Assembly: GCA_964016885.1 (NCBI GenBank)
Contig: OZ024740.1
Location: 278,752,001 to 278,816,000, forward strand
Origin: Eledone cirrhosa
Taxonomy: Eukaryota
Reading direction: 5' to 3'
Length of the DNA: 64,000 nucleotides
Part shown: positions 1 to 53,862 of the stretch, piece after piece
Numbering within the stretch: position 1 is the stretch's first letter
Layout: each line of letters opens with the position of its first letter
Notes under the pieces: generated by a model
The model's input: the letters and a program-made list of their open reading frames with translations, nothing else
What the model was told of the DNA's origin: nothing
The model's database searches: none
Made by a program: the position numbers and the translations under genes

Positions 1-3000
1 GTACTTCAGTGAATATGTGGGTGCTTCAGTGAGTATGTGGGTGCTTCAGTGAGTATGTGGGTACTTCAGTGAATATGTGGGTACTTCAGTGAGTATGTGC
101 GTGCTTCAGTGAGTATTGGGTACTTCAGTGAGTATGTGGGGACTTCAGTGAGTATTGGGTACTTCAGTGAGTATGTGGGTACTTCAGTGAGTATGTGGGT
201 GCATCAGTGAGTATGTGCGTGCTTCAGTGAGTATGTGGGTACTTCAGTGAGTATGTGGGTACTTCAGTGAGTATGTGGGTACTTCAGTGAGTATTGGGTA
301 CTTCAGTGAGTATGTGGGGACTTCAGTGAGTATTGGGTACTTCAGTGAGTATGTGGGTGCTTCATTGGGTATGTGGGTGCTTCAGTGAGTATGTGGGTGC
401 TTCAGTGAGTATGTGGGTGCTTCATTGAGTATGTGGGTGCTTCAGTGAGTATGTGGGTGCTTCAGTGAGTATGTGGGTACTTCAGTGAGTATGTGGGTGC
501 TTCAGTGAGTATGTGGGTGCTTCAGTGAGTATGTGGGTGCTTCAGTGAGTATGTGGGTGCTTCAGTGAGTATGTGCGTGCTTCAGTGAGTATGTGGGTCC
601 TTCAGTGAGTATGTGGGTGCTTCAGTGAGTATGTGGGTGCTTCAGTGAGTATGTGGGTGCTTCAGTGAGTATGTGGGTACTTCAGTGAGTATGTGCGTGC
701 TTTAGTGAGTATGTGGGTGCTTCAGTGAGTATGTGGGTGCTTCAGTGAGTATATGGGTACTACAGTGAGTATGTGGGTACTTCAGTGTGTATGTCGGTAC
801 TTCAGTGAGTATGTGGGTACTTCAGTGAGTATGTGGGTGCTTCGTGTGTATGTGGGTACATAAGTGAGTATGTGGGTACTTCAGTGAGCTTGTGGGTACT
901 TCAGTGAATATGTGGGTGCTTCAGTGAGTATGTGGGTGCTTCAGTGAGTATGTGGGTACTTCAGTGAGTATGTGGGTACTTCAGTGAGTATGTGCGTGCT
1001 TCAGTGAGTATTGGGTACTTCAGTGAGTATGTGGGGACTTCAGTGAGTATTGGGTACTTCAGTGAGTATGTGGGTACTTCAGTGAGTATGTGGGTGCATC
1101 AGTGAGTATGTGCGTGCTTCAGTGAGTATGTGGGTACTTCAGTGAGTATGTGGGTACTTCAGTGAGTATGTGGGTACTTCAGTGAGTATTGGGTACTTCA
1201 GTGCGTATGTGGGGACTTCAGTGTGTATTGGGTACTTCAGTGAGTATATGGGTGCTTCATTGGGTATGTTGGTGCTTCAGTGAGTATGTGGGTGCTTCAG
1301 TGAGTGCTTCATTGAGTATGTGGGTGCTTCAGTGAGTATGTGGGTGCTTCAGTGAGTATGTGGGTACTTCAGTGAGTATGTGGGTGCTTCTGTGAGTATG
1401 TGGGTGCTTCATTGAGTATGTGGGTGCTTCAGTGAGTATGTGGGTACTTCAGTGAGTATGTGGGTACTTCAGTGAGTATGTGGGTGCTTCAGTGAGTATG
1501 TGGGTGCTTCAGTGACTATGTGGGTGCTTCATTGAGTATGTGGGTGCTTCAGTGAGTATGTGGGTACTTCAGTGAGTATGTGGGTGCTTCAGTGAGTATG
1601 TGGGTACTTCAGTGAGTATGTGGGTGCTTCATTGATTATGTGGGTGCTTCAGTGAGTATGTGGGTACTTCAGTGAGTATGTGGGTACTTCAGTGAGTATG
1701 TGGGTGCTTCATTGAGTATGTGGGTGCTTCAGTGAGTATTGGGTACTTCAGTGAATATGTGGGTGCTTCAGTGAGTATGTGGGCGTTTCAGTGAGTATGT
1801 GGGTACTTCAGTGAGTATGTGGGTGCTTCAGTGAGTATGTGGGTACTTCAGTGAGTATGTGGGTGCTTCAGTGAGTATGTGGGGGTTTCAGTGAGTATGT
1901 GGGTACTTCAGTGAGTATGTGGGTACTTCAGTGAGTATGTGCGTGCTTCAGTGAGTATGTGGGTACTTCAGTGAGTATGTGCGTGCTTCAGTGAGTATGT
2001 GGGTGCTTCAGTGAGTATGTGGGTACTTCAGTGAGTATGTGCGTGCTTCAGTGAGTATGTGCGTGCTTCAGTGAGTATGTGGGTACTTCAGTGAGTATGT
2101 GGGTGCTTCAGTGAGTATGTGGGTGCGTCAGTGAGTATTGCGTGCTTCAGTGAGTATGTGGGTACTTCAGTGAGTATGTGGGTACTTCAGTGAGTATGTG
2201 CGTGCTTCAGTGAGTATGTGGGTACTTCAGTGAGTATGCGGGTACTTCAGTGAGTATGTGCGTGCTTCAGTGAGTATGTGGGTGCTTCAGTGAGTATGTG
2301 GGTACTTCAGTGAGTATGTGGGTGCTTCAGTGAGAATGTGGGTGCTTCAGTGAGTATGTGGGTACTTCAGTGAATATGTGTGTGCTTCAGTGAGTATGTG
2401 GGTGCTTCAGTGAGTATGTGGGTGCTTCAGTGAGTATGTGGGTACTTCAGTGAGTTTGTGGGTACTTCAGTGAGTATGTGGGTACTTCAGTGAGGTTGTG
2501 GGTACTTCAGTGAATATGTGGCTGCTTCAGTGAGTATGTGGGTGCTTCAGTGAGTATGTGGGTACTTCAGTGAGTATGTGGGTACTTCAGTGAGTATGTG
2601 CGTGCTTCAGTGAGTATTGGGTACTTCAGTGAGTATGTGGGGACTTCAGTGAGTATTGGGTACTTCAGTGAGTATGTGGGTGCTTCAGTGAGTATGTGGG
2701 TGCTTCATTGAGTATGTGGGTGCTTCAGTGAGTATGTGGGTACTTCAGTGAGTATGTGGGTACTTCAGTGAGTATGTGGGTGCTTCAGTGAGTATGTGGG
2801 TGCTTCAGTGAGTATGTGGGTGCTTCACTGAGTATGTGGGTGCTTCAGTGAGTATGTGGGTATTTCAGTGAGTATGTGGGTACTTCAGTGAGTATGTGCG
2901 TGCTTCAGTGAGTATGTGGGTACTTCAGTGAGTTTGCGGGTACTTCAGTGAGTATGTGCGTGCTTCAGTGCGTATGTGGGTGCTTCAGTGAGTATGTGGG

Positions 3001-6000
3001 TACTTCAGTGAGTATGTGGGTGCTTCAGTGAGAATGTGGGTGCTTCAGTGAGTATGTGGGTACTTCAGTGAATATGTGGGTGCTTCAGTGAGTATGTGGG
3101 TGCTTCAGTGAGTATGTGGGTGCTTCAGTGAGTATGTGGGTACTTCAGTGAGTATGTGGGTACTTCAGCGAGTATGTGGGTACTTCAGTGAGTATGTGGG
3201 TGCTTCAGTGAGTATGTGGGTATTTCAGTTAGTATGTGGGTGCTTCAGAGAGAATGTGCGTGCTTCAGTGATTATGGGGTACTTCAGTGAGTATGTGGGT
3301 ACTTCAGTGAGTATGTGGGTACTTCAGTGAGTATGTGGGTACTTCAGTGAGTATGTGGGTACTTCAGTGAGTATGTGGGTACTTCAGTGAATATGTGGAT
3401 ACTTCAGTGAGTATGTGGGTACTTCATTGAGTATGTGGGTGCTTCAGTGAGTATGTGGATACTTCAGTGAGTATGTGGGTACTTCAGTGAGTATGTGGGT
3501 ACTTCAGTGAGTATGTGCGTGCTTCAGTGAGTATGTGCGTGCTTCAGTGAGTATGTGGGTACTTCAGTGAGTATGTGGGTACTTCAGTGAGTATGTGGGT
3601 ACTTCAGTGAGTATGTGGGTACTTCAGTGAGTATGTGCGTGCTTCAGTGAGTATGTGGGTACTTCAGTGAGTATGTGGGTACTTCAGTGAGTAGGTGGGT
3701 ACTTCAGTGAGTATGTGCGTGCTTCAGTGAGTATGTGGGTGCTTCAGTGAGTATGTGGGTACTTCAGTGAGTATGTGGGTACTTCAGTGAGTATGTGGGT
3801 AATTCAGTGAGTATGTGGGTACTTCAGTGAGTATGTGGGTGCTTCAGTGAGTATGTGGGTGCTTCAGTGAGTATGTGGGTACTTCAGTGAGTATGTGGGT
3901 ACTTCAGTGAGTATGTGGGTGATTCAGTGAGTATGTGGGTGCTTCAGTGAGTATGTGGGTACTTCAGTTAGTATGTGGGTGCTTCAGATAGAATGTGCGT
4001 GCTTCAGTGAGTATGTGGGTACTTAAGTGAGTATGTGGGTACTTCATTGAGTATGTGGGTGCTTCAGTGAGTATGTGGATACTTCAGTGAGTATGTGGGT
4101 ACTTCAGTGAGTATGTGGGTACTTCAGTGAGTATGTGCGTGCTTCAGTGAGTATGTGGGTGCTTCAGTGAGTATGTGGGTACTTCAGTGAGTATGTGGGT
4201 ACTGCAGTGAGTATGTGGGTAATTCAGTGAGTATGTGGGTACTTCAGTGAGTATGTGGGTGCTTCAGTGAGTATGTGGGTGCTTCAGTGAGTATGTGGGT
4301 ACTTCAGTGAGTATGTGGATACTTCAGTGAGTATGTGGGTGATTCAGTGAGTATGTGGGTGCTTCAGTGAGTATGTGGGTACTTCAGTTAGTATGTGGGT
4401 GCTTCAGATATAATGTGCGTGCTTCAGTGAGTATGTGGGTACTTAAGTGAGTATGTGGGTACTTCAGTGAGTATGTGGGTGCTTCAGTGAGAATGTGGGT
4501 GCTTCAGTGAGTATGTGGGTACTTCAGTGAATATGTGAGTGCTTCAGTGAGTATGTGGGTGCTTCAGTGAGTATGTGGGTGCTTCAGTGAGTATGTGGGT
4601 ACTTCAGTGAGTATATGGGTACTTCAGTGAGTATGTGGGTACTTCAGTGAGTATGTGGGTGCTTCAGTGAGTATGTGGGTACTTCAGTTAGTATGTGGGT
4701 GCTTCAGAGAGAATGTGCGTGCTTCAGTGAGTATGTGGGTACTTCAGTGAGTATGTGGGTGCTTCAGTGAGTATGTGGGTGCTTCAGTGATTATGTGGGT
4801 GCTTCAGTGAGTATGTGGGTGCTTCAGTGAGTATGTGGGTGCTTCAGTGAGTATGTAGGTGCTTCAGTGAGTATGTGCGTGCTTCAGTGAGTATGTGGGT
4901 CCTTCAGTGAGTATGTGGGTGCGTCAGTGAGTATGTGGGTGCTTCAGTGAGTATGTGTGTGCTTCAGTGAGTATGTGGGTACTTCAGTGAGTATGTGGGT
5001 GCTTCAGTGAGTATGTGGGTGCTTCAGTGAGTATGTGGGTGCTTCAATGAGTATGTGGGTACTACAGTGAGTATGTGGGTACTTCAGTGAGTATGTCGGT
5101 ACTTCAGTGAGTATGTGGGTACTTCAGTGAGTATGTGGGTGCTTCGTGTGTATATGGGTACATAAGTGAGTATGTGGGTACTTCAGTGAATTTGTGGGTA
5201 CTTCAGTGAATATGTGGGTGCTTCAGTGAGTATGTGGGTGCTTCAGTGAGTATGTGGGTACTTCAGTGAATATGTGGGTACTTCAGTGAGTATGTGCGTG
5301 CTTCAGTGAGTATTGGGTACTTCAGTGAGTATGTGGGGACTTCAGTGAGTATTGGGTACTTCAGTGAGTATGTGGGTACTTCAGTGAGTATGTGGGTGCA
5401 TCAGTGAGTATGTGCGTGCTTCAGTGAGTATGTGGGTACTTCAGTGAGTATGTGGGTACTTCAGTGAGTATGTGGGTACTTCAGTGAGTATTGGGTACTT
5501 CAGTGAGTATGTGGGGACTTCAGTGAGTATTGGGTACTTCAGTGAGTATGTGGGTGCTTCATTGGGTATGTGGGTGCTTCAGTGAGTATGTGGGTGCTTC
5601 AGTGAGTATGTGGGTGCTTCATTGAGTATGTGGGTGCTTCAGTGAGTATGTGGGTGCTTCAGTGAGTATGTGGGTACTTCAGTGAGTATGTGGGTGCTTC
5701 AGTGAGTATGTGGGTGCTTCAGTGAGTATGTGGGTGCTTCAGTGAGTATGTGGGTGCTTCAGTGAGTATGTGCGTGCTTCAGTGAGTATGTGGGTCCTTC
5801 AGTGAGTATGTGGGTGCTTCAGTGAGTATGTGGGTGCTTCAGTGAGTATGTGGGTGCTTCAGTGAGTATGTGGGTACTTCAGTGAGTATGTGCGTGCTTT
5901 AGTGAGTATGTGGGTGCTTCAGTGAGTATGTGGGTGCTTCAGTGAGTATATGGGTACTACAGTGAGTATGTGGGTACTTCAGTGTGTATGTCGGTACTTC

Positions 6001-9000
6001 AGTGAGTATGTGGGTACTTCAGTGAGTATGTGGGTGCTTCGTGTGTATGTGGGTACATAAGTGAGTATGTGGGTACTTCAGTGAGCTTGTGGGTACTTCA
6101 GTGAATATGTGGGTGCTTCAGTGAGTATGTGGGTGCTTCAGTGAGTATGTGGGTACTTCAGTGAGTATGTGGGTACTTCAGTGAGTATGTGCGTGCTTCA
6201 GTGAGTATTGGGTACTTCAGTGAGTATGTGGGGACTTCAGTGAGTATTGGGTACTTCAGTGAGTATGTGGGTACTTCAGTGAGTATGTGGGTGCATCAGT
6301 GAGTATGTGCGTGCTTCAGTGAGTATGTGGGTACTTCAGTGAGTATGTGGGTACTTCAGTGAGTATGTGGGTACTTCAGTGAGTATTGGGTACTTCAGTG
6401 CGTATGTGGGGACTTCAGTGTGTATTGGGTACTTCAGTGAGTATATGGGTGCTTCATTGGGTATGTTGGTGCTTCAGTGAGTATGTGGGTGCTTCAGTGA
6501 GTGCTTCATTGAGTATGTGGGTGCTTCAGTGAGTATGTGGGTGCTTCAGTGAGTATGTGGGTACTTCAGTGAGTATGTGGGTGCTTCTGTGAGTATGTGG
6601 GTGCTTCATTGAGTATGTGGGTGCTTCAGTGAGTATGTGGGTACTTCAGTGAGTATGTGGGTACTTCAGTGAGTATGTGGGTGCTTCAGTGAGTATGTGG
6701 GTGCTTCAGTGACTATGTGGGTGCTTCATTGAGTATGTGGGTGCTTCAGTGAGTATGTGGGTACTTCAGTGAGTATGTGGGTGCTTCAGTGAGTATGTGG
6801 GTACTTCAGTGAGTATGTGGGTGCTTCATTGATTATGTGGGTGCTTCAGTGAGTATGTGGGTACTTCAGTGAGTATGTGGGTACTTCAGTGAGTATGTGG
6901 GTGCTTCATTGAGTATGTGGGTGCTTCAGTGAGTATTGGGTACTTCAGTGAATATGTGGGTGCTTCAGTGAGTATGTGGGCGTTTCAGTGAGTATGTGGG
7001 TACTTCAGTGAGTATGTGGGTGCTTCAGTGAGTATGTGGGTACTTCAGTGAGTATGTGGGTGCTTCAGTGAGTATGTGGGGGTTTCAGTGAGTATGTGGG
7101 TACTTCAGTGAGTATGTGGGTACTTCAGTGAGTATGTGCGTGCTTCAGTGAGTATGTGGGTACTTCAGTGAGTATGTGCGTGCTTCAGTGAGTATGTGGG
7201 TGCTTCAGTGAGTATGTGGGTACTTCAGTGAGTATGTGCGTGCTTCAGTGAGTATGTGCGTGCTTCAGTGAGTATGTGGGTACTTCAGTGAGTATGTGGG
7301 TGCTTCAGTGAGTATGTGGGTGCGTCAGTGAGTATTGCGTGCTTCAGTGAGTATGTGGGTACTTCAGTGAGTATGTGGGTACTTCAGTGAGTATGTGCGT
7401 GCTTCAGTGAGTATGTGGGTACTTCAGTGAGTATGCGGGTACTTCAGTGAGTATGTGCGTGCTTCAGTGAGTATGTGGGTGCTTCAGTGAGTATGTGGGT
7501 ACTTCAGTGAGTATGTGGGTGCTTCAGTGAGAATGTGGGTGCTTCAGTGAGTATGTGGGTACTTCAGTGAATATGTGTGTGCTTCAGTGAGTATGTGGGT
7601 GCTTCAGTGAGTATGTGGGTGCTTCAGTGAGTATGTGGGTACTTCAGTGAGTTTGTGGGTACTTCAGTGAGTATGTGGGTACTTCAGTGAGGTTGTGGGT
7701 ACTTCAGTGAATATGTGGCTGCTTCAGTGAGTATGTGGGTGCTTCAGTGAGTATGTGGGTACTTCAGTGAGTATGTGGGTACTTCAGTGAGTATGTGCGT
7801 GCTTCAGTGAGTATTGGGTACTTCAGTGAGTATGTGGGGACTTCAGTGAGTATTGGGTACTTCAGTGAGTATGTGGGTGCTTCAGTGAGTATGTGGGTGC
7901 TTCATTGAGTATGTGGGTGCTTCAGTGAGTATGTGGGTACTTCAGTGAGTATGTGGGTACTTCAGTGAGTATGTGGGTGCTTCAGTGAGTATGTGGGTGC
8001 TTCAGTGAGTATGTGGGTGCTTCACTGAGTATGTGGGTGCTTCAGTGAGTATGTGGGTATTTCAGTGAGTATGTGGGTACTTCAGTGAGTATGTGCGTGC
8101 TTCAGTGAGTATGTGGGTACTTCAGTGAGTTTGCGGGTACTTCAGTGAGTATGTGCGTGCTTCAGTGCGTATGTGGGTGCTTCAGTGAGTATGTGGGTAC
8201 TTCAGTGAGTATGTGGGTGCTTCAGTGAGAATGTGGGTGCTTCAGTGAGTATGTGGGTACTTCAGTGAATATGTGGGTGCTTCAGTGAGTATGTGGGTGC
8301 TTCAGTGAGTATGTGGGTGCTTCAGTGAGTATGTGGGTACTTCAGTGAGTATGTGGGTACTTCAGCGAGTATGTGGGTACTTCAGTGAGTATGTGGGTGC
8401 TTCAGTGAGTATGTGGGTATTTCAGTTAGTATGTGGGTGCTTCAGAGAGAATGTGCGTGCTTCAGTGATTATGGGGTACTTCAGTGAGTATGTGGGTACT
8501 TCAGTGAGTATGTGGGTACTTCAGTGAGTATGTGGGTACTTCAGTGAGTATGTGGGTACTTCAGTGAGTATGTGGGTACTTCAGTGAATATGTGGATACT
8601 TCAGTGAGTATGTGGGTACTTCATTGAGTATGTGGGTGCTTCAGTGAGTATGTGGATACTTCAGTGAGTATGTGGGTACTTCAGTGAGTATGTGGGTACT
8701 TCAGTGAGTATGTGCGTGCTTCAGTGAGTATGTGCGTGCTTCAGTGAGTATGTGGGTACTTCAGTGAGTATGTGGGTACTTCAGTGAGTATGTGGGTACT
8801 TCAGTGAGTATGTGGGTACTTCAGTGAGTATGTGCGTGCTTCAGTGAGTATGTGGGTACTTCAGTGAGTATGTGGGTACTTCAGTGAGTAGGTGGGTACT
8901 TCAGTGAGTATGTGCGTGCTTCAGTGAGTATGTGGGTGCTTCAGTGAGTATGTGGGTACTTCAGTGAGTATGTGGGTACTTCAGTGAGTATGTGGGTAAT

Positions 9001-12000
9001 TCAGTGAGTATGTGGGTACTTCAGTGAGTATGTGGGTGCTTCAGTGAGTATGTGGGTGCTTCAGTGAGTATGTGGGTACTTCAGTGAGTATGTGGGTACT
9101 TCAGTGAGTATGTGGGTGATTCAGTGAGTATGTGGGTGCTTCAGTGAGTATGTGGGTACTTCAGTTAGTATGTGGGTGCTTCAGATAGAATGTGCGTGCT
9201 TCAGTGAGTATGTGGGTACTTAAGTGAGTATGTGGGTACTTCATTGAGTATGTGGGTGCTTCAGTGAGTATGTGGATACTTCAGTGAGTATGTGGGTACT
9301 TCAGTGAGTATGTGGGTACTTCAGTGAGTATGTGCGTGCTTCAGTGAGTATGTGGGTGCTTCAGTGAGTATGTGGGTACTTCAGTGAGTATGTGGGTACT
9401 GCAGTGAGTATGTGGGTAATTCAGTGAGTATGTGGGTACTTCAGTGAGTATGTGGGTGCTTCAGTGAGTATGTGGGTGCTTCAGTGAGTATGTGGGTACT
9501 TCAGTGAGTATGTGGATACTTCAGTGAGTATGTGGGTGATTCAGTGAGTATGTGGGTGCTTCAGTGAGTATGTGGGTACTTCAGTTAGTATGTGGGTGCT
9601 TCAGATATAATGTGCGTGCTTCAGTGAGTATGTGGGTACTTAAGTGAGTATGTGGGTACTTCAGTGAGTATGTGGGTGATTCAGTGAGTATGTGGGTACT
9701 TCAGTGAGTATGTGGGTGCTTCAGTGAGTATGTGGGTGCTTCAGTGAGTATGTGGGTGCTTCAGTGAGTATGGGGGTACTTCAGTGAGTATGTGCGTGCT
9801 TCAGTGAGTATGTGCGTGCTTCAGTCAGTATGTAGGTACTTCAGTGAGTATGTGGGTACTTCAGTGAGTATGTGCGTGCTTCAGTGAGTATGTGGGTACT
9901 TCAGTGAGTATGTGGGTACTTCAGTGAGTATGTGTGTGCTTCAGTGAATATGTGGGTACTTCAGTGAGTATGTGGGTACTTCAGTGAGTATGTGGGTAGT
10001 TCAGTGAGTATGTGGGTGATTCAGTGAGTATGTGGGTGCATCAGTGAGTATGTGGGTACTTCAGTGAGTATGTGCGTGCTTCAGTGAGTATGTGGGTACT
10101 TCAGTGAGTATGTGGGTGCTTCAGTGAGTATGTGGGTACTTCAGTGAATATGTGGGTGCTTCAGTGAGTATGTGGGTGCTTCAGTGAGTATGTGGGTGCT
10201 TCAGTGAGTATGTGGGTACTTCAGTGAGTATGTGTGTGCTTCAGTGAGTATGTGGGTACTTCAGTGAGTATGTGGGTACTTCAGTGAGTATGTGGGTACT
10301 GCAGTGAGTATGTGGGTAATTCAGTGAGTATGTGGGTACTTCAGTGAGTATGTGGGTGCTTCAGTGAGTATGTGGGTGCTTCAGTGAGTATGTGGGTACT
10401 TCAGTGAGTATGTGGATACTTCAGTGAGTATGTGGGTGATTCAGTGAGTATGTGGGTGCTTCAGTGAGTATGTGGGTACTTCAGTTAGTATGTGGGTGCT
10501 TCAGATATAATGTGCGTGCTTCAGTGAGTATGTGGGTACTTAAGTGAGTATGTGGGTACTTCAGTGAGTATGTGGGTGATTCAGTGAGTATGTGGGTACT
10601 TCAGTGAGTATGTGGGTGCTTCAGTGAGTATGTGGGTGCTTCAGTGAGTATGTGGGTGCTTCAGTGAGTATGGGGGTACTTCAGTGAGTATGTGCGTGCT
10701 TCAGTGAGTATGTGCGTGCTTCAGTCAGTATGTAGGTACTTCAGTGAGTATGTGGGTACTTCAGTGAGTATGTGCGTGCTTCAGTGAGTATGTGGGTACT
10801 TCAGTGAGTATGTGGGTACTTCAGTGAGTATGTGTGTGCTTCAGTGAATATGTGGGTACTTCAGTGAGTATGTGGGTACTTCAGTGAGTATGTGGGTAGT
10901 TCAGTGAGTATGTGGGTGATTCAGTGAGTATGTGGGTGCATCAGTGAGTATGTGGGTACTTCAGTGAGTATGTGCGTGCTTCAGTGAGTATGTGGGTACT
11001 TCAGTGAGTATGTGGGTGCTTCAGTGAGTATGTGGGTACTTCAGTGAATATGTGGGTGCTTCAGTGAGTATGTGGGTGCTTCAGTGAGTATGTGGGTGCT
11101 TCAGTGAGTATGTGGGTACTTCAGTGAGTATGTGTGTGCTTCAGTGAGTATGTGGGTACTTCAGTGAGTATGTGGGTGCTTCAGTGAGTATGTGGGTACT
11201 TCAGTGAGTATATGGGTACTTCAGTGAGTATGTGGGTACTTCAGTGAGTATGTGGGTGCTTCAGTGAGTATGTGCGTGCTTCAGTGAGTATGTGGGTACT
11301 TCAGAGAGTATGTGGGTGCTTCAGTGAGTATGTGGGTACGTCAGTGAGTATGTGGGTACTTCAGTGAGTATGTGCGTGCTTCAGTGAGTATGTGCGTGCT
11401 TCAGTGAGTATGTGGCTTCTTCAGTGAGTATGTGGGTGCTTCAGTGAGTATGTGGGTACTTCAGTGAGTATGTGGGTACTTCAGTGTGTATGTGCGTGCT
11501 TCAGTGAGTATGTGGCTTCTTCAGTGAGTATGTGGGTGCTTCAGTGAGTATGTGGGTACTTCAGTGAGTATGTGGGTACTTCAGTGAGTATGTGCGTGCT
11601 TCAGTGAGTATGTGGGTGCTTCAGTGAGTATGTGGGTACTTCAGTGAGTATGTGGGTACTTCAGTGAGTATGTGGGTACTTCAGTGAGTATGTGCGTGCT
11701 TCAGTGAGTATGTGGGTGCTTCAGTGAGTATGTGGGTACTTCAGTGAGTATGTGGGTACTTCAGTGAGTATGTGTGCGTTTCAGTGAGTATGTGGGTGCT
11801 ACAGTGAGTATGTGGGTACTTCAGTGAGTATGTGCGTGCTTCAGTGAGTATGTGCGTGCTTCAGTGAGTATGTGGGTACTTCAGTGAGTATGTGGGTACT
11901 TCAGTGAGTATGTGGGTGCTTCAGTGAGTATGTGGGTGCTTAAGTGAGTATGTACGTGCTTCAGTGAGTATGTGGGTGCTTCAGTGAGTATGTGGGTACT

Positions 12001-12357
12001 TCAGTGAGTATGTGGGTGCTTCAGTGAGTATGTGGGTGCTTCAGTGACTATGTGGGTACTTCAGTGAGTATGTGGGTACTTCAGTGATTATGTGGGTACT
12101 TCAGTGAGTATGTGGGTGCTTCAGTGAGTATGTGGGTACTTCAGTGAGTATGTGGGTACTTCAGTGAGTATGTGGGTACTTCAGTGAGTATGTGGGTACT
12201 TCAGTGAGTATGTGGGTGCTTCAGTGAGTATGTGGGTACTTCAGTGAGTATGTGGGTGCTTCAGTGAGTATGTGGGTGCTTAAGTGAGTATGTACGTGCT
12301 TCAGTGAGTATGTGCGTGCTTCAGTGAGTATGTGCGTGCTTCGTGTGTATGTGGGTG
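1..12357. repeat. 20-bp minisatellite array, consensus CTTCAGTGAGTATGTGGGT(A/G), ~620 units, runs off the window start
   Basis: Continuous 20-bp periodicity with occasional 19-bp units (TATTGGG). Diagnostic variants recur at +5197 (1-4481 = 5198-9678) and +900 (9361-10260 = 10261-11160). Ends abruptly at ~12357. Confidence 0.98.
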
Positions 12358-13417: not shown

Positions 13418-13618
13418 CACACACACATAAATATATATATATGTATATATGCATACACACACATATACTTATATATATATATATATATATATACATATAT
13501 ATAGAGACACATACTTATATATATATACATATACTTTATATCTATATTTGCATGCATATATATATATATGCAAAAAGAAAATCACGGTTGTTCCACTCTC
13601 ATTATCTAGTTACATATG

Positions 13619-13798
13619 GTGGATTGGCAGTATCGGTAGAGGGTCGGACGCCATGCTTTCCAGCATAGTTACGTCCCTTTATGATCTGAGTTCAAATCCC
13701 GCCGAGGTTGACTTTGCCTTTCATCCTTACAGGGTCGATAAAATAAAGTACCAGTAATGCACTGGGTAATTGCTGGCCTTGTGCCTAAAGTAGAAACA
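13619..13798 (+). mobile_element. tRNA-derived SINE with 18-bp target-site duplication
   Basis: A-box-like TGGCAGTATCGG, B-box GTTCAAATCC, conserved core GACTTTGCCTTTCATCCTTAC-GGGTCGATAAAATAAAGTACCAG. TSD ATTATCTAGTTACATATG at 13601-13618 and 13799-13816. Confidence 0.9.
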
Positions 13799-13834
13799 AT
13801 TATCTAGTTACATATGTGCGTGTTTGTGTGTGTT

Positions 13835-13870
<36 letters not shown>

Positions 13871-13898
13871 AGTATGAAATTTCGTTTCATTTTTTCCG

Positions 13899-14595: not shown

Positions 14596-14658
14596 CAAAA
14601 TTTTTTTATCAATAGTGACATAGCCATGGAAAACAACCTTGACGGTTGAAAATTCGCT

Positions 14659-14724
<66 letters not shown>

Positions 14725-14725
<1 letters not shown>

Positions 14726-14765
14726 GCTGCTGATGATAGCTAATAAGCTTGAAACTAGTTCATCG
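14725..14765 (+). ncRNA. Minimal hammerhead ribozyme, family A (GUU variant, one stem I mismatch)
   Basis: CGCTG-CTGATGA-T-AGCT-AATA-AGCT-T-GAAA-CTAG-T-T-CATCG. Confidence 0.7.
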
Positions 14766-15271
14766 TCCCTTTGTCAGTGTTGAACAAAAGGGCGACGATG
14801 GTTGCCGAACACTGTACGGCTTAATTCGGGCTGTTTGTTTACAAAGAAACCGAACATTATAATAAATGTTCGGTAAACCCATACGTACATATATATATAT
14901 ATATATGTGTGCATGTATGTATATATATACATACTACTGTACGTCTGTATACATATATGTATGTACGTATACATACTTATATTTAAGTATCAGCCGTACT
15001 AAGAGTGAGAAATTTCATTTCATTTCATTCTTTTCCATGTGTATATATATATATATATATGTAAGTATGTATGTATACGTACATACATATATGTATACAG
15101 ACGTACAGTAGTATCTATATGTATACATACATGTACACATATATATATGTACGTATTGGTTTACCGAACATTTATTATAATGTTCGGTTTCTTTGTAAAC
15201 AAACAGCCCGAATTAAGCCGTACAGTGTTTAGCAACCATCGTTGCCCTTTTGTTCAACACTGACAAAGGAA

Positions 15272-15312
15272 CGATGTACTAGTTTCAAGCTTATTAGCTA
15301 TCGTCAGCATCG
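15272..15312 (-). ncRNA. Minimal hammerhead ribozyme, family A (intact core)
   Basis: Minus strand: CGATG-CTGACGA-T-AGCT-AATA-AGCT-T-GAAA-CTAG-T-A-CATCG. Confidence 0.85.
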
Positions 15313-15746
15313 TATACCTTCCTGCCAGATAATTGAACGTCTGAAAGTATATACTTTCCTTATGCATATTAACGGCTGAGAAGCCTAATTTGCATATCGA
15401 ATTTGCATATTTCGGGCTGTTTGTTTACAAACAAACCGAACATTATAATAAATGTTCGGTAAACCGATACGTACATATATATATGTGTGTACATGTATGT
15501 ATATATATATACATACTACTGTACCTCTGTATACATATATGTATGTACGTTTACATACATACTTACATTTAAGTAACTGCCGTACTAAGAGTGAGAAATG
15601 AAATTTCGTTTCATTTTTTCCATTTATCGTTTTCGGTACCCTGGCCGACTAAACTCACTCGATATGCAAATTAGGCTGCTCAGCCGTTAATATGCATAAG
15701 GAAAGTATATACTTTCAGACGTTCAATTATCTGGCAGGAAGGTATT

Positions 15747-15787
15747 CGATGCTGACGATAGCTAATAAGCTTGAAACTAGTACATCG
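15747..15787 (+). ncRNA. Minimal hammerhead ribozyme, family A (intact core; predicted cut after 15782)
   Basis: Stem I CGATG/CATCG, core CTGACGA, stem II AGCT/AGCT, GAAA, palindromic stem III ACTAGT, GUA triplet. Confidence 0.85.
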
Positions 15788-16053
15788 TTCCTTTGTCAGT
15801 GTTGAACAAAAGGGCAACGATGGTTGCTCAACACTGTACGGCATAATTCGTCTGTTTGTTTACAAACAAACCGAACATTATAATAAATGTTCGGTAAACC
15901 GATACGTACATATATATATATGTACATGTATGTATATATATACATACTACTGTACGTCTGTATACATATATGTATGTACGTATACATACATACTTACATT
16001 TAACTAACTGCCGTACTAAGAGTGAGAAATGAAATTTCGTTTCATTTTTTTCC

Positions 16054-16114
<61 letters not shown>

Positions 16115-16116
<2 letters not shown>

Positions 16117-16420
16117 AGGAAAAAAGATGAAAACGAAAATGCAACTGGAGTCTTTTTTTTTAAATATATTTATTTGTTTCCTTTACCGGTTTCGCAGTTC
16201 TTGTGATTTTCAAAAGTAGAATTGATGTGAGAAAAACCACAAACCCTTCATCTCAATTCTACTTTTGTAAAGCACAAGACCTGTGAAACCGGTAAAGGAA
16301 CCAAATAAATATTTTTTTTTTTAAAAGGCTCCACTTGCATTTTCGATTTCATCTTTTTTCCTTATACTTTCACTCGTCTTATTCATTTTGTAAAAAAGCC
16401 TCACTCTCTAATGTATATAT
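16115..16420. mobile_element. Solo PLE-type pLTR foldback (~115-bp inverted arms) with U3-A8 hammerhead variant
   Basis: 16115-16230 is the imperfect reverse complement of 16248-16364. Arm consensus CTT-TTGAAAA-GCA..TGC-GAAA-CCGG-T-A-AAG. Follows a (TA)n tract. Confidence 0.65.
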
Positions 16421-16775: not shown

Positions 16776-16932
<157 letters not shown>

Positions 16933-17171
16933 ATTACATAACTAAGCATTCTAACCATCCTGCCAGCATAACCAAGAACCTGGAAAGAAACGTTTCTTTG
17001 AGGCTTTCCCGTCTATCTACTAACGAGCATATTTTCAACGACCATTCCACATATTACAATTAAACTCTTGCTAGGAGTGGATTTGTCGATAAGGTAGCAT
17101 ATACAGAGTACGAGAATAGACCTAGAAGAAATAGATCCCGACGCATTATATGGTATAACCCACCATATAAT

Positions 17172-17822
17172 ATGGAGGTGGCCACACCATTAGCTAAGAT
17201 CTTTCTCTCCCTTATTATGAAGCATTTTGCCCCAACACATAAATATAGTAAAATTTTTAATAGAAATACCATTAAAATTTCTTACTCTACGACTCCTAAC
17301 CTTGCATATAACATCACAGCTTCAAATTTAGCTAAACTACCTAGCCGTAGGAACACGTGCAACCCTGTAGCTAGTACTAACTGTAATTGTAGGAATCGGG
17401 TTGACTGCCCCCTATCCGGGAAATGCCTCTCTAGTAACATTATCTACAAATCTAAGGTTGAAACATCCACGTCCCGTAGGGCCTACATTGGGTTAACCGC
17501 CAATAGATTCAAGCAGCGTCTTTACATGCATAGCCATTCTTTTCTTAACCCTTTAAGAAGGAATATGACGTCACTTTCAGCTTATATCTGGAGTCTAAAA
17601 GACAACCACACCCAATATAAGTTACACTGGGAGATCCTAGTTAGGGCTAGATCGTATAACGGAAATAAAAGACCATGTGACCTCTGCGCCGCTGAGGCCC
17701 TGGAAATACTCTACGCCAAAGACCACATCTTAAACAAAAAATCTGAGGCAATTTCAACTTGTAAACATAAATTGCACAAAACTTTCCTGTATTACAGCTC
17801 CATATTATACGCTAACGGATAG
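17172..17822 (+). CDS. PLE C-terminal GIY-YIG endonuclease ORF fragment
   Basis: IIY..YIG motif, RFKQRLYMH, Cys-rich linker CNC..CPL..C and CDLC. Confidence 0.85.
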   Translation: MEVATPLAKIFLSLIMKHFAPTHKYSKIFNRNTIKISYSTTPNLAYNITASNLAKLPSRRNTCNPVASTNCNCRNRVDCPLSGKCLSSNIIYKSKVETSTSRRAYIGLTANRFKQRLYMHSHSFLNPLRRNMTSLSAYIWSLKDNHTQYKLHWEILVRARSYNGNKRPCDLCAAEALEILYAKDHILNKKSEAISTCKHKLHKTFLYYSSILYANG

Positions 17823-18867
17823 TACGAGCTATACGCGGATATTTTACGTCTTGATGTGGTAGCTAAGTGTATGTTATTTTTATACCATTACTTATTTGTA
17901 TAGGTAAGTATATATTACCTGTATCTTTTGTGAAGGTACGTATACTTTCTCGTACGCATATTTGTTTGTATATGTTATGGCGTATATATTATATATTCTG
18001 GTACATATGCATTTGGTTATGTGTATACGCGAGTTTTGCGTCTGTGTGCGTATGCGGGTTCGTACGTATGTAGGGTGTGTATATATGTGTACTTTGTGTT
18101 TTGGTTGACGTACGTCTCCGAACATATGTGTATTTACATGTAGGTATGTGTGTGCCCGCGTTATATACGTATTTATTTATTTATATACGTTTATTTAATT
18201 ATATGTATACACGCACAAACACACACATATATATATATTTTTTTTAATATATATTTTTATGTGTATTTTATATATATTTTTATGGTGTATACATTCGTAT
18301 GTGTGCGAGTACAGGCGTTGCGTGGGTTCTGTCTGTGCGTGTGGGGTTTTTTGTGTACATGCTTGTATTTATATACCTATGGCGAGTGTTTTCGCGTATG
18401 CTTGTGTATGTACGTATATGGATGCGTGTATGTATTTATTTTATTTCAATTACCTGTATTTTATTTACTTTATTCTTAACTCTGAAGCCGAGAATCATTC
18501 GGTTTCCTAGTTAGAATTTTAGTCTACGACTTCAGTTATACCATTTACGTGGTTTTGTCTTTGCGTGCAATTGTTCTTCCGCGCCACATAATGACGTATT
18601 ATCTTCGTTTTTTCCGTTCATTACCAGAGAACGTCTCCATGAACCACCTAATAGAATATTAGTCTACGACTTCTTTTATACCATAAACGTGGTTTTGTCT
18701 TTGCGTGTAATTGTTTTTCACCGCTCCAAATAATGACGTATTATCTTCGTTTTTTCCCGTTCTTTGCCATGGAACGTTTCCACGAACCAAAGTATCGTCT
18801 TCCTGTCTTCCTCCGGTTGCAACCTTTTTTGAAATATTTACTTCTGCGTTCACAGATTGACATTTTT

Positions 18868-18918
18868 AGTTTCAGAAGATCCCGTTAAGGGTGAAAGCAG
18901 CGATTCTTTGCTTAAACT
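18868..18918 (+). ncRNA. Variant hammerhead in PLE 3' end (core CAGAAGA, CUU triplet)
   Basis: AGTTT-CAGAAGA-T-CCC..GGG-T-GAAA-GCA..TGC-T-T-AAACT. Identical in the minus-strand copy at ~49691-49741. Confidence 0.55.
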
Positions 18919-19021
18919 TTAATCTGTTATTTTAATAAATATTTGCTCTACGGTTCTTATATATTTGATATATATTTATCCTTATCGAGCCCTCTTTGGA
19001 TTTTATCTAATTTATTATTAT

Positions 19022-19931
<910 letters not shown>

Positions 19932-20182: not shown

Positions 20183-21802
20183 TATATATTGGTAAACGGA
20201 ATAGAAAATGCTGACAAATTGTTCACAGTTGAAAAATGGTTTAATTAGGAATAAAAGAGTATTAGTGATTGTATGGGTTAGTATTCAGTTGTGGTTTTAA
20301 GTTTTTAAGTTTTTACCGGTTGCGCATTTCTAAATGCTTTTCAAAAATAATTTTGAGATAGAGTGTCCGTGCTGTTTGCTCTGATCTGATTAGTTTTGGG
20401 AATTCTACCTGTTTTTATGTTAAAAAAATGGCTCCAGCGTTATTTTTGTGTTGCAAAAATGCTTGTGGTCAAAACAATTTTGATTGGTCGGTAGAGGTCA
20501 TGTGAATGTAAAAAGTTGATTTTGCGCCAAGACTGTTTTTATGTTTTTTTATGGCAACCCCTATATCAGGCGAATGAATTCAGTTGTGTATATTTTTGCA
20601 AGAATGCAAAAACATCACAAATCGAATAGAGTTCTCAACAGAAGGGTTTAAATTAACATAAGCTATTCATCAGTCAATAGAATCAACTAAAAAATCAAGA
20701 AAATTAACTGGTCAATAGCTAGAGTCTGGAGAATAATACAAACATAAATTGGGATGATTTTGGGCGGCACAGGTATCAATGTGTTCACTCAGTAAAAAAA
20801 TGCGATAGACCCAACTGTGGCATTTGCATCAACCTAATAGAGGGTTCGGAATTCTATTTCAAAGATGGACAACGTTTTATAGTAAAACACAATTTCACAT
20901 GTGCATCGGAAAATCTAATATATGTATTAACTTGTTCAGGTTGTCGAGAACAATACATAGGCCAGACCAAAAACAGCCTCCGCCAACGCATGACTGTCCA
21001 TAGATCCCAAATTAAAATACGGGAATACAGGAAAATACCACTGAGTGAACACATTGATACCTGTGCCGCCCAAAATCATCCCAACTTCAGAATCTTTCCC
21101 CTCTACAAATTTAAAGATAATGCCACCCACACCCAGCGCATCAGCAAGGAATCTTACTTCATTAACAAATACGGACCCCGTCTAAACACTTCTCCCTAAG
21201 ACGAACCCACAACATACACACGTCAACATACATACCTACATCAGCACACATCTCTACCCACATATAAACACAATGACACACGTAAACACACATGCTCTAT
21301 GGTGCAATACAAAAAAATATATGTGCATATATGTGTATGTATATATGTATATATATATATATGTAGTGAAAATATATATGTGTGTGTGTGTGTGTGTATA
21401 TATATATAGTGAATATCATTTCACACCTTTTATTGTTAAGATTGTTGATGTTCTATTAAGAGAACCGATTTTACTGAAAAAATCGAATAATGTACACCAT
21501 TTTACCAGGGGGGAAAAAAATACTGGTCCACCCACACACGCACACACACACACACACATATATATACACAAACACATACACACGCGTACATCAACATACA
21601 AAGAGACTTATACACACACACACACACACGCACTTCTCCGTATAAGACAAAAGCTGAAAAATATCTTTTGACCTTCGAATGACTCTGCTGTGTGTATGTA
21701 CGCTCACACACACACACACACACACACACACTTATCTTAATAGCCATTTGACACACATCGCTGGTGGCTATTGTCGCAGCATCGAACACCTTACTACTAC
21801 TA

Positions 21803-35110: not shown

Positions 35111-37749
35111 ATAACACCACCAAAAACACCATCATATATAACCAAAATAGAAAAAAAGATTCCGAAAGAACTATTGCTCCAAAACTACAACAAAAACATA
35201 CGAAATAAGTGAGGGTACCCTTGAGACTGTGATAGGAAAACTCCAAGATAAGAAGACACCAGGAAGAGACATGATTGTCGGCTACTGGTATAAAAAACTG
35301 ATATTCTATTGGAGGTATCTTACTGACCTCTACCAATAAGTTCTTAAGGGAGATACACTTATACCAGAATGGTTGACATTAGTAGAAACATTACTGGTCC
35401 CCGAGAACAAAGACACCCACTTGGCAAAATCCTACTGACCCATTGCATGCCAGAACCTGATGTAGAAGATGTATACAGCCTGCCTGAATCTATTCCTCCA
35501 AGATCACTGCGAAAATAATAACATCATCACAGATGAACAAGCAGCTGGAAAGAAAGGGGTTTGGGGATGTGCTGAACAACTCCTAATCAACAAAACTGCG
35601 ATGTCGGAGGTGCGACAACTTAGGAGGAATATGGCTGGACTACAGGAAAGCTTTTGATTCTGTTCTCCACTCTTGGATGATAGAGGCCCTCCAACTTGCT
35701 AAAGTCCCAGACATTATTGTCAGAGCCATAGAGAGGCTGTCTTCTTCTTGGGCTACTAGCCTAAGGTTAACGACAGAGAGGGAGGACTCTATTTTCACAG
35801 ATAAAATAAAATATCGCAGGGGTATATTTCAGGGAGACAGTCTCTCTGTAATATTATTCATCCTGTAATTAAACCCCTTGTCCTTTCTGCTCAAGAAATG
35901 TGAGGGATACATCATTGGCTCACAGGAAGACAGAAATACGAACCTAACCCATAATTTCTTTGTAGATGATCTGAAACTCTATGCCAAGAACATGGATGGG
36001 ATGAAGAAAAATCTTGACCTGGTTACAACGTTCTCAAAGGATATAGGAATGGAGTTTGGCCAAGATAAATGCTCATATACGACTGTAAAGCGGGGAAAAA
36101 CAACAACCCAATCTAGCAACATTGTCATTAATGGCCTAACTGTTTCACCGATATCTGATGAGGACTGCTACAGATACCTGGGCATAGATGAGAACATATC
36201 CTATAATGGTATCTGTAATAAGGAACGCGTAACCAGGGAATACTACACCCGATTAAGAAAGATTTGGTCATCGGAACTCTCTGAGCAAAACAAAACAGTG
36301 GCTCACAATGTGTTTGCTGTGCCTGTCCTAACACCAGCGTTTGGAATACTCAATTGGACGATAGACGAAATCCGAGCAGTTGATGTTGGAACTCGAAAAA
36401 TACTGAACAACACCGTAAACTTCCACATCAACAGTGACATAGGCCGTCTTTACTTGAACGGTAAGCAGGGAGGCAGAGGCATAACATCAGTCCAGACAGC
36501 ATTTGAATGTCGCATCATATCTCTCCGACAACATCTACGAACCTTAAAGCGTAGGAGCCCGTCTCTCGAGCAAGTCTATCTGCATGAAACAGATAAGATC
36601 ATGAGAGTTGGGAAGGAACTCCTCCAGAGATATTCCCTGTGTGATAATCAAAAACTCACACCCAGGGAAATCGCTCAGCAGTTTCGCAGCGAATCCATGG
36701 ATGAAAAACTGCATGCTTATCAGCAAAAAATCATGCATGGGTATGTTGCCAGGAAGCTGCAGAGTGAGAGTAATATAAATAAGCAAAGTAGTCTATCTTG
36801 AACCAACAACCGATATATTGGCTCCCACTTTGAAGGATACGCTTTTGCAATCCAAGAACAGGAAATTAACACGAAATACCTGATTCACAAAAGAGATAGG
36901 GATACAGGCAAAACACCTAGATTTGATAACAAGTGCAGACTCTGCAGAACTAACATCGAAGATGTCACCCATGTCATCAGCAGCTGTCGAAAGATGTCAT
37001 CGCGGTACTATCTGCCTATGAGGCATGATGTAGTGGCCAAAACATTGTACAATGCAATCCGTAAAAAAGATAGCCCCGATAATAAACACATTAAAGGCTA
37101 CAGTAATGGAAGACATCCATGTACATAATATGAAATAGTACTGGTGGAATGTTCCAGTAAAAACCCCAATAAAATGCAGGCATAACAGATCAGATATGAT
37201 ATGGGACAGGGAGAAGAAAACATGCACAGTAGTGGAAATTAGCTGCCCATCAGATGCCAATATAATATCAAAAATTACTGAAAAGGAGAATATTTATGCA
37301 GAACTGATGAGAAATCTGCAGATACTCCACCCTGATTACACTTTCAGATTTATGCCTGTGATTATTGGGGCACTGGGGTATGTTAGTAACTGCCTCAATA
37401 CAAATCTTGAAAATCTAGGCTTCACAGGAACAGAAAGAACACAACTAGTTAGGAAATTACAAGTACAATCCATTAATGGAACAGTAAAAATATGTAAAAC
37501 ATTCCAAATATTTTGCATCTAATAACTGCATATACACATGTACAGATACAAAGCATATACACATGCACACATACAACTCAAAACATCCACATCCACACAT
37601 ACAATAACATCCATATCTACACATGCATACATACATATCTACCTAGTTGATTTTGTGTAAATTCCAATGAGAGAGTCTTGTGTCTATGTTAGAAATCGAC
37701 TCTCTCTCTCTATTGGTAAAAAATTTTTGAAATTATAAAACCAGAAGAA
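35111..37749 (+). mobile_element. 5'-truncated R4/Dong-like non-LTR retrotransposon (RT + CCHC + restriction-like endonuclease), disrupted
   Basis: GIFQGDSLS, FVDDLKLY, CRLC..HVISSC, RHD, VVEISCP motifs with stops and frameshifts. 3' end joins (CATA)n. Starts at a position equivalent to 60643, followed by a ~390-bp deletion. Confidence 0.9.
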
Positions 37750-39413: not shown

Positions 39414-39460
<47 letters not shown>

Positions 39461-39611
39461 ATACTTTGGGAGGGTCATGTTGCCAATAAGAAACACACGC
39501 ACCAGTTGCTTTCACTTCAATTTAATTTAATATATATTTATAAATTTACAAATTTATAAATTTCTGGTTGGTTGGTTGGTTCCACAACCAGATAGTTGTT
39601 TATATATATAT

Positions 39612-39656
39612 AGTCATAGTTCTTTCGTCACACACTCTGTGACCTCTTCAGTGACT
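39612..39656 (-). ncRNA. Mirror copy of the pLTR hammerhead
   Basis: Exact reverse complement of 42355-42399. Confidence 0.85.
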
Positions 39657-40353
39657 GGGGATTTCTTTCTTCGTTTCTGTGCCTTTCCTTTCTTCTATCC
39701 TACGCCATTTTGTTTGTGTGTGGGTTGCGTGCTCAGTTTGCGCATGCGCCACATCCGGGTGTCTGTGTGTGTTTGTGTTCATTTTTCTATTTTTCTATTT
39801 TTATATTTATATTTGTTTGTTTATTTATTTATTTATTGTTGGTTGGTTGTTTGTTCTATGTGTGTGTGTGTTTTCATTTTGTCTTGTGTGTGTTTTCATT
39901 TTGTGTGTGTTTTCAATTGTAAGTTGTTTATATATGTGTGTGTGTGTTTTCATTTTGTCCTTAATTGTAAGTTGTGATGTTGCTGTTCCACTCATATTTT
40001 CTATTTAATTTTGGTTTTAATTCTTTTATGCTTACTGCCTCTGTAATTTGCCTAAACATTGCGTCTTTCTTGTGTGTGGATTCTATTTTTATTTCTATGC
40101 TCTCTAATTTACCCCTGTGTTCTATCTTAGCATGTTGGTAGAGCACAGATGATTCTTTACTATCTTGGAGGTCTCGCCAGTGTTCATTTATTCGTTCCCC
40201 TATACTACGAGCTGTCTCACCTATGTACACTATATTTTTGTTTCTACATTGTCCCTCAGTACATCTTATGCTATATACTACATTTCTAGTTTTACAGTTA
40301 ATATGGGGGCTTATTTTACAGGTTATACATTTCTTATCTATACATGAGGGTCT

Positions 40354-41394: not shown

Positions 41395-42050
41395 ATAATG
41401 ACATAAATGGGACCTGCCCCTTGTATAGGAGCAAATTTTGGAATAGAATAGAAAGAACTAAGAACAAGGCCAATAGAATAAACTCATGGTATGATAGCAA
41501 TAAATACCAGAGTGTAATGTTCATCAATACAACCCCTAGAGGTGAACTAGCCTACAAATTTAGAAGGGCCCTAAAGAAACATAATCTCAATATTAAGATA
41601 GTAGAAAGACCTGGTACCTCCTTAAAAACACTTATTAGCAAGACATACCCGTTCCAAAGACCCTCATGTATAGATAAGAAATGTATAACCTGTAAAATAA
41701 GCCCCCATATTAACTGTAAAACTAGAAATGTAGTATATAGCATAAGATGTACTGAGGGACAATGTAGAAACAAAAATATAGTGTACATAGGTGAGACAGC
41801 TCGTAGTATAGGGGAACGAATAAATGAACACTGGCGAGACCTCCAAGATAGTAAAGAATCATCTGTGCTCTACCAACATGCTAAGATAGAACACAGGGGT
41901 AAATTAGAGAGCATAGAAATAAAAATAGAATCCACACACAAGAAAGACGCAATGTTTAGGCAAATTACAGAGGCAGTAAGCATAAAAGAATTAAAACCAA
42001 AATTAAATAGAAAATATGAGTGGAACAGCAACATCACAACTTACAATTAA
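41379..42050 (+). CDS. PLE Cys-linker + GIY-YIG endonuclease, separated from RT by a 1-nt frameshift
   Basis: CIDKKCITC..NCKTRNVVYSIRC..YIGETARSIGERINEH..RQITEAVSIKELKPKLN. Confidence 0.9.
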   Translation: MEKMVNNDINGTCPLYRSKFWNRIERTKNKANRINSWYDSNKYQSVMFINTTPRGELAYKFRRALKKHNLNIKIVERPGTSLKTLISKTYPFQRPSCIDKKCITCKISPHINCKTRNVVYSIRCTEGQCRNKNIVYIGETARSIGERINEHWRDLQDSKESSVLYQHAKIEHRGKLESIEIKIESTHKKDAMFRQITEAVSIKELKPKLNRKYEWNSNITTYN

Positions 42051-42354
42051 GGACAAAATGAAAACACACACACACATATATAAACAACTTACAATTGAAA
42101 ACACACACAAAATGAAAACACACACAAGACAAAATGAAAACACACACACACATAGAACAAACAACCAACCAACAATAAATAAATAAATAAACAAACAAAT
42201 ATAAATATAAAAATAGAAAAATAGAAAAATGAACACAAACACACACAGACACCCGGATGTGGCGCATGCGCAAACTGAGCACGCAACCCACACACAAACA
42301 AAATGGCGTAGGATAGAAGAAAGGAAAGGCACAGAAACGAAGAAAGAAATCCCC

Positions 42355-42612: not shown

Positions 42613-42680
<68 letters not shown>

Positions 42681-52429: not shown

Positions 52430-53862
<1,433 letters not shown>

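Follow-up and report, generated by a model that had tools for sequence, protein, structure and literature searches.

Mobilisation of non-LTR retrozymes by Penelope-like elements (PLEs) was proposed from the co-occurrence of the two, from their shared ribozyme type and from pLTR homology (PMC7229834; 10.64898/2026.07.22.740005; all papers are cited here for the portions of their text that were available to us). Such retrozymes are expressed as monomers in linear and circular form, and they cleave themselves better as dimers. In Xenopus, eight of nine retrozyme dimers did not cleave (10.64898/2026.07.22.740005). PLE insertions themselves carry a published mark, namely a tail that only one of the two inverted ends carries; this tail is optional or often one-sided and has a length of 30-40 nt (PMC8557442, PMC3846280). 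Both strands are cut and extended by a PLE protein in purified form, which has been modelled as a dimer and uses two internal starts that bracket the tail; PLE insertion in vitro did not require hammerhead cleavage, and none of the reads had its end at the cut site (PMC11167929). The minimal hammerhead ribozyme (min-HHR) possesses a helix II of 7-8 bp, a helix I of 4-5 bp, a bulge after A9, a G10.1-C11.1 pair and a helix III that is palindromic or missing (PMC4209133). For newt satellite 2, an internal promoter of the snRNA type has been reported (PMC2220036). How animal retrozymes enter DNA and how PLEs build inverted insertions with one tail are both left open in these sources (PMC7229834, PMC8557442, 10.64898/2026.07.22.740005).

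We analysed a stretch of 64,000 nucleotides from Eledone cirrhosa (the window). All coordinates are window positions, and numbers preceded by "m" are positions on the reference monomer at 15624-16055. At the locus described here, three segments of one 432-nt unit lie in one (TA)n target microsatellite, the left flank of which is 14661-14720 and the right flank 16060-16114. Taken alone, the locus is an unremarkable copy that shows mild decay. We consider it fairly probable that it represents two insertions of a high-copy, non-coding hammerhead repeat in one (TA)n, written by a PLE enzyme that primed both sides of the break and used for this two fixed sites inside an RNA that was probably circular.

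Segment A (14721-15038, + strand) is a lone, 5'-truncated copy of m120-432, which ends at a site that we call Y. A 17-nt remnant of the TA target (15039-15055) separates its 3' end from that of segment B (15056-15400, - strand). Segment B is the left arm of a head-to-head pair, covers m36-379 and has its 3' end at a second site, X. Segment C (from ~15405/15411 to 16059, + strand) is the right arm; it comprises 1.5 monomers (m ~223-432, then 1-432, then 1-4), has its 3' end at Y and includes the full 432-nt monomer (15624-16055, +), which is non-coding and has a GC content of 35%. A tail of 57 nt (16003-16059, +), lying between site X (16002) and site Y (16059), is present on one arm only. Thus, B with its X end and C with its Y end are a standard head-to-head pair. 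Their junction (15388-15410) is a joining scar with a 13-nt-offset duplication that includes an octamer: ATTTGCATAT is present twice, at 15388-15397 and at 15401-15410, and the 5' end of B is 5 nt upstream of the duplicated octamer. The first-pass annotation of this DNA had described a unit of ~435 nt laid down in the order +, -, + with different starts. The three segments and their differing starts are as it described, and the period is 432 nt. It had taken C for a partial monomer, where we find a head-to-tail tandem 1.5-mer. The octamer repeat to which it had drawn attention at the B/C junction is real, but a special meaning of it is not supported: a similar short repeat is present at 7 of 50 junctions. 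No ORF of at least 120 aa was found across the locus. Directly to its right, there is a 250-bp fold-back with ~86-bp arms (16115-16364), which may be a MITE or a PLE stub; related copies flank two of the fetched genomic copies (L098 and L149).

Each of the three segments contains the order CUGAnGA, stem II, GAAA, ACUAGU and N17, so that there is one ribozyme core with the stem III palindrome ACTAGT per arm. The ribozyme is a type I hammerhead; its stem I has 6 bp, and its stem II has 4 bp with U.U at the base. The hammerhead of B (15271-15313, -) is the intact, family-majority form (stem I 6/6, stem II 4/4 plus U.U, stem III ACTAGT, GUA) and is predicted to be cut between 15277 and 15276. In the hammerhead of C (15746-15788, +), stem I is 5/6, and the predicted cut site is between 15782 and 15783. 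The hammerhead of A (14724-14766, +) has a GUU triplet and two stem I mismatches and has lost the upstream extension of stem I; judged by these letters, it is predicted to be weak or dead. Elsewhere in the window, a short CTGATGA...GAAA core with flanking complementarity is present at 50270-50293 (-), and 21767-21795 (-) resembles the 5' half of the family ribozyme without a valid core.

Among the aligned genomic copies (130-144 per position), the core letters are 98-100% conserved. The common variants lie at N7, in loop II and at a single position of stem I, which keeps its pairing, and 242 of the 266 covered cores have no core change at all. Each position of the ACTAGT stem III is 97-100% conserved. 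U1.7 and the last adenine of loop II are 99% conserved, presumably as a tertiary contact would need. Rare changes occur at 1.0% in the core as compared with 1.9% in the rest of the unit; we did not use this difference as evidence, because many loci were found by the core pattern. Between the 432-nt family and a sister family described below, the core is invariant, whereas in stem I and in stem II alike, three pairs are changed on both sides; the base of stem II is U.U in the former and G-C in the latter. These compensatory changes imply selection for folding, which argues against a ribozyme that is simply carried along. A circular fold with a z of -9.1 was set aside as evidence of selection, because TA-rich palindromes inflate z.

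Stem III with its 2-nt loop cannot be scored as a hairpin, but as a duplex it has -4.8 kcal/mol in the energy model. This supports the earlier suggestion that stem III can pair only between two monomers. In the same model, the double hammerhead has -20.2 kcal/mol as compared with -14.2 kcal/mol for two open monomers, and dimer-dependent cleavage is predicted. The lowest-energy cofold of two ribozymes is not the active form but another structure of similar energy. In contrast, the name "minimal PLE hammerhead", which the same annotation had used, does not apply: a stem I of 6 bp and a stem II of 4 bp plus U.U belong to the canonical class. The U.U departs from the G10.1-C11.1 pair. A search with Rfam at the gathering threshold gave no hammerhead match in the whole window, and among the 132 sub-threshold matches (E up to 5) in 14600-16200, which are mostly to TA-rich miRNA models, none is a hammerhead.

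Exact matches to a 35-nt pattern of the ribozyme core number 14,975 over the 3.0-Gb genome, a count of monomers and not of loci, whereas the reversed control has 0. A relaxed pattern found 11,342 further cores, and 95 of the 100 listed belong to the sister family, which has a unit of 466-469 nt (L098, L105, L155 and L156) and can be aligned end to end with the 432-nt unit. The octamer ATGCAAAT, the stem III palindrome and a tail hairpin are common to both families. One sister insertion has an arm of 31 monomers and X/Y ends. This arm contains two adjacent 461-nt periods, which suggests some array growth after insertion. The 432-nt family is also present in contigs from four of six sequencing runs, representing three organisms, with one opposite-strand joint. 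Within the window, there is a second head-to-head locus (52444-53811), in which a 2.2-mer + arm ends at X. It belongs to a younger subfamily with 99-100% identical copies elsewhere. Both ribozymes of its + arm have independent core changes (G12 to C at ~53005 and G5 to A at ~53523), and its - arm has a short fold-back at the end, adjoining the Y end of a PLE copy (PLE-1). The unit has the size and composition of a non-LTR retrozyme (432 nt, in the range of 150-450 bp; 35% GC; non-coding; many copies). It contains no ORF, and with it no ORF encoding the RT and GIY-YIG domains of an autonomous PLE. These features fit a new member of the non-LTR retrozymes that works like a non-autonomous PLE passenger.

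The fetched copies, named by L and a number, comprise 164 loci, which were merged into 136 regions. For 213 uncut arms of at least 100 nt, the 3' end is at Y in 97, at X in 84 and elsewhere in 32. Site X is mostly m379 or m369 and site Y is mostly 4 nt into the next monomer; the two are 57 nt apart. At 127 of the 181 X/Y ends, at least 70% of the flank consists of TA/AT steps, and a target-site duplication is unreadable inside such a TA microsatellite. In contrast to the 3' ends, the 168 5' ends that could be placed are scattered over the unit, and four are within 5 nt of the cut site (five expected). The first-pass annotation had called for a survey of permutation points and would have given up its model if all copies shared fixed linear ends: the 5' ends are free, but the 3' ends are fixed at X or Y in 181 of the 213 arms.

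Head-to-head arrangement was found for 145 of 220 arms. In the 81 head-to-head pairs, both ends are assignable in 49, one is unassignable in 22 and both in 2, and 8 pairs are cut by the end of the fetched stretch. All 49 assignable pairs are X/Y, and X/X and Y/Y were not found (0 each; p ~1e-15 under independent choice). The same applies to all 26 pairs at the loci found by pattern, which were taken in chromosome order and not by similarity. Therefore, the 57-nt tail is always on exactly one arm. This is the Penelope tail rule, and it is the main signal of the family. A genome-wide pattern search found 8 minimal two-armed stubs, all of which are X/Y. One of these eight is in the window (13864-13897), where ~10 nt of an X end (-) are joined via ATG to ~27 nt of a Y end (+) in (TA)n. 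A single Y/Y match to the stub pattern is in fact an internal junction, and an apparent X/X pair at L034 was a match to an internal palindrome, which disappeared when such matches were filtered. In the 49 X/Y pairs, the lengths of the X-arm and the Y-arm are negatively correlated (rho -0.39, p 0.006). This correlation may reflect competition on one template or may be an artefact of locus selection.

The same footprint is present in two autonomous PLE families of the window. PLE-1 (16931-19025) is a 5'-truncated copy of a 713-aa element, which is of the Hydra type by its motifs (RWR, DKT, CxCx5C, CxxC and CxH, compared by eye with those in the available portions of PMC8557442). PLE-1 gave no sequence match in Pfam or PDB and no significant match to the RT of PLE-2. 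There are 76,133 first-look candidates for PLE-1 in the genome. It has two 3' ends in (TA)n, and these are used one per arm in all 7 distinct inverted pairs (one of them read by eye). In the 3' region of PLE-1 (~18872-18918), we observed a hammerhead-like fold with CAGAAGA in place of CUGAnGA and U.U at the base of stem II. PLE-2 (39455-42616) is an inverted pair with hammerheads at 39651 (-) and 42360 (+), and has weak matches to RVT_1 and GIY-YIG. Its tail is 60 nt long, and its ends are X/Y in 5 of 5 pairs including the window copy, the ends being paired by proximity. The PLE-2 family is a very young one: its copies are 98-100% identical, and there are open frames of ~1279 aa. PLE-2 is the best candidate for the partner of the 432-nt family. 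A third PLE is represented at 20723-21199 by a GIY-YIG fragment; this has a CxxxxCxxC linker, by which we take the element to be Neptune-like. At 13600-13800, there is a ~200-bp insert bounded by a repeated 15-mer, which is probably a SINE or a small mobile element; in L040, an insert related to this one splits a copy of PLE-1.

We compared the family and the PLEs at the sequence level. An A+B profile was compared with 84 PLE loci, which represent at least three families and leave most PLE families of the genome outside the sample. No sequence common to both was found, and all profile matches in these loci are neighbouring retrozyme copies. The same 84 loci gave no pLTR homology in resident PLEs. 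Against the three PLE 3' regions of the window, blastn gave one 29-nt match (E 0.004), which is not a hammerhead. TATCG is present at the start sites of PLE-2 and at site Y of both retrozyme families, which would be a weak lead to the partner. In PLE-1, a hairpin of the form RCTC...GAGY-RC follows each start site and is thus present twice. Neither of the two subfamilies nor the sister family has this hairpin, which speaks against the family being a passenger of PLE-1, a PLE of the Hydra clade.

The published tail mark of PLE insertions, the extension of both strands by the PLE protein in vitro and the footprint of PLE-1 and PLE-2 together make it likely that a PLE enzyme made the insertions by priming both sides of the break. 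The proposed series of events is as follows. Tentatively, arrays would be transcribed, possibly from an internal octamer-type promoter. Neighbouring hammerheads would then, on balance, pair via ACUAGU and excise monomers, which would be ligated into circles. The next step is the one on the enzyme, and here our confidence is high: a PLE endonuclease/RT, likely as a dimer, would cut (TA)n, and one DNA end would be primed at X and the other at Y. Very probably, each RT would then read on past the cleavage junction over a length that varies, and the cDNAs would be joined head-to-head by microhomology or a few extra bases. The most specific version, in which a dimeric PLE RT/endonuclease acts on one A-to-I-edited circle at two obligatorily different sites and copies it both ways by rolling circle, so that a self-promoting ribozyme RNA would be mobilised without any sequence shared with its helper, is possible but somewhat doubtful.

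The nature of the template was judged from the passage of the cleavage site and from the sequence variants. In 177 of 220 arms, the cleavage site is read through without a scar, up to 21 times per arm. Therefore, simple run-off from cut monomers is excluded. At the family level, 35 of the 220 arms are tandems that span at least two cut sites. The first-pass annotation had proposed copying from a circular or multimeric RNA, and the read-through and the scattered 5' ends bear this out. The discordance at diagnostic sites is 2.9% within arms and 3.1% across arms, whereas it is 20.4% between loci. This test replaced a nearest-neighbour-within-locus test (32/154), which was uninformative because age inflates within-locus distance. 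Moreover, rare changes were polarised in the RNA sense and counted at three rarity cut-offs. The ratio of A>G to T>C was 8:0, 11:5 and 25:6 for variants shared within an insertion and 7:0, 8:1 and 17:2 for variants on both arms. In contrast, it was 26:33, 28:49 and 36:53 for singletons. A first pass with fewer loci had given 13:2 for shared variants and 20:25 for singletons. The excess of 11:5 in shared variants at the middle cut-off is not significant (p 0.21), nor is the 5:2 in the youngest insertions, a subset that is too small. Editing of A to I before reverse transcription is read as G and would explain the A>G changes. The bias in shared but not in singleton variants speaks for a single edited RNA, probably a circular one, that was copied repeatedly, and we lean slightly towards a circle as the template.

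The alternative that survives best keeps the priming at two sites by a PLE enzyme; here, existing arrays would supply the template as an uncut linear multimer, the ribozyme would be a passenger at this step, and long arrays would grow later by DNA-level exchange. The X/Y ends, the read-through and the scattered 5' ends are explained equally well by such a multimer, and a uniform source array copied in this way would give the same uniform haplotypes and inherited A>G. Cleavage is dispensable in vitro in the available account (PMC11167929), 144 of the 220 arms span one cut site only, and in old arrays the monomers differ by 3-7% and the internal TA tracts vary. However, the arms with 13 and 21 cut sites and the 31-mer arm of the sister family would call for RNAs of several kb that are filled with dimer-competent ribozymes and yet stay uncut. 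Furthermore, the multimer is at odds with an A>G excess that is found in shared variants and not in singletons, and with stem changes that point to selection for folding. We regard the uncut multimer as rather unlikely and retain the circular RNA as the preferred template.

A second alternative concerns segment A. The first-pass annotation had read the locus as a single event, in which A, B and C came from one reverse transcription with two template switches on one RNA. A and B do have one rare allele in common, at m244, and the arm closest to A among 180 is B, by a small margin (4.1%; next 4.2%). Conversion within the 270-bp inverted repeat that A and B form could account for the shared allele; otherwise, it would be due to chance. 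In contrast, A has its own 3' end at Y and its 5' end is joined to (TA)n, and A is separated from B by 17 nt of target. The two face each other tail-to-tail over this TA repeat, which is the sole X/Y tail-to-tail case for arms of at least 60 nt in the 136 regions. Of the diagnostic sites, 4 of 30 differ between A and B and 5 of 29 between A and C, as compared with 2 of 41 between B and C. A carries the alleles of another subfamily at ~11 positions or blocks, including a 4-nt deletion that is present in 16-17 other insertions. We consider a single event very improbable. Because of the Y end of A, its start in (TA)n, the tail-to-tail facing and the foreign subfamily alleles, we read the locus as two insertions in one (TA)n. 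By its letters, A belongs to a subfamily that differs from that of B and C and is likely a separate insertion; that it would have arrived apart, as a one-armed insertion, is a step of the proposed series on which our confidence is again high.

If RT copied cleaved linear monomers and jumped between the cut ends, tandem arrays would also result. However, the cut site shows no excess of 5' ends (4 of 168, with five expected), and m159-160 are 97-98% conserved, with one gap in ~148 insertions. We judge such copying extremely unlikely. Spread at the DNA level as a satellite, fold-back or MITE-type element, with inversions from repair at TA repeats, would suit a monomer rich in palindromes and TA tracts but has a practically negligible probability, because fixed 3' and random 5' ends, the X/Y rule, the match to autonomous PLEs and the strand-biased A>G need an RNA step and there are no terminal inverted repeats of fixed length.

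The unit contains a ATGCAAAT octamer (15664-15671, +), which is a candidate element of an internal promoter of the snRNA type. It is kept in the 432-nt and sister families and is 95-99% conserved per position. Its 31-nt context has 7,236 exact matches. The rare-change rate of the octamer is 2.2%, which is no lower than the 1.9% in the rest of the unit. For this reason, an internal octamer-type promoter is no more than a lead. The conserved octamer of newt satellite 2 is said to have a role in that satellite.

In other parts of the window, a 20-bp satellite (4-12357; ~620 copies, 92% matches) has a strong G/T skew. At 35869-37522 and 59704-63341, there are broken ORFs of non-LTR retrotransposons with RT and, by eye, C-terminal Cys-rich and nuclease-like stretches.

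The comparison with known systems is as follows. The 432-nt family resembles metazoan non-LTR retrozymes in its non-coding, low-GC unit, type I hammerhead, thousands of copies, range from monomers to arrays and occurrence with PLEs. As in amphibian retrozymes, helix III is weak and palindromic (PMC7229834, 10.64898/2026.07.22.740005), and as in HHR_Amex2 of axolotl, according to the available description, there is U.U at the base of helix II. In contrast, head-to-head arms, two fixed 3' sites and a one-sided tail are not described in the available portions of the metazoan retrozyme papers. The pLTR homology of the retrozymes of Li 2026 (10.64898/2026.07.22.740005, as far as its available text goes) has no counterpart in the 84 PLE loci. 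With the min-HHR, the family shares the palindromic positions 15.2-16.2 and loop 3 and the prediction as a dimer, but helix II is 4 bp instead of 7-8 bp, helix I is 6 bp instead of 4-5 bp, and U.U stands in place of G10.1-C11.1 (PMC4209133). Newt satellite 2 is a hammerhead satellite that works as a dimer, as is predicted for the 432-nt family, and it likewise has a conserved octamer upstream of the ribozyme.

In a literature search, supplements aside, we found no paper that describes a retrozyme from a cephalopod, or that reports for retrozymes a tail on one side, insertions with two arms or scars of editing. Mobilisation by PLEs and copying of a circle have already been proposed in print; the footprint evidence is new relative to the parts of the literature covered. 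The family provides this footprint in a countable form in the genome: each arm has its own start site in 49 of 49 pairs, two resident PLE families match this, and A>G changes in the RNA sense are shared by both arms. Moreover, it provides exact start sites and a 432-nt substrate for an in vitro assay with a PLE protein, so that the circle and dimer-priming models are directly testable.

The 432-nt family lacks an RT and an endonuclease, its tail is 57 nt as compared with 30-40 nt, and an arm can hold up to tens of successive units; in these respects it is unlike a PLE. It is like PLE insertions in the 5' truncation, the partial tandems, the inverted truncated arm, the tail on one end, the AT-rich or (TA)n target and the two internal RT starts. 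Whereas the tail of PLEs is optional or often one-sided in the published descriptions available, it is on exactly one arm in all 49 assignable pairs of the 432-nt family.
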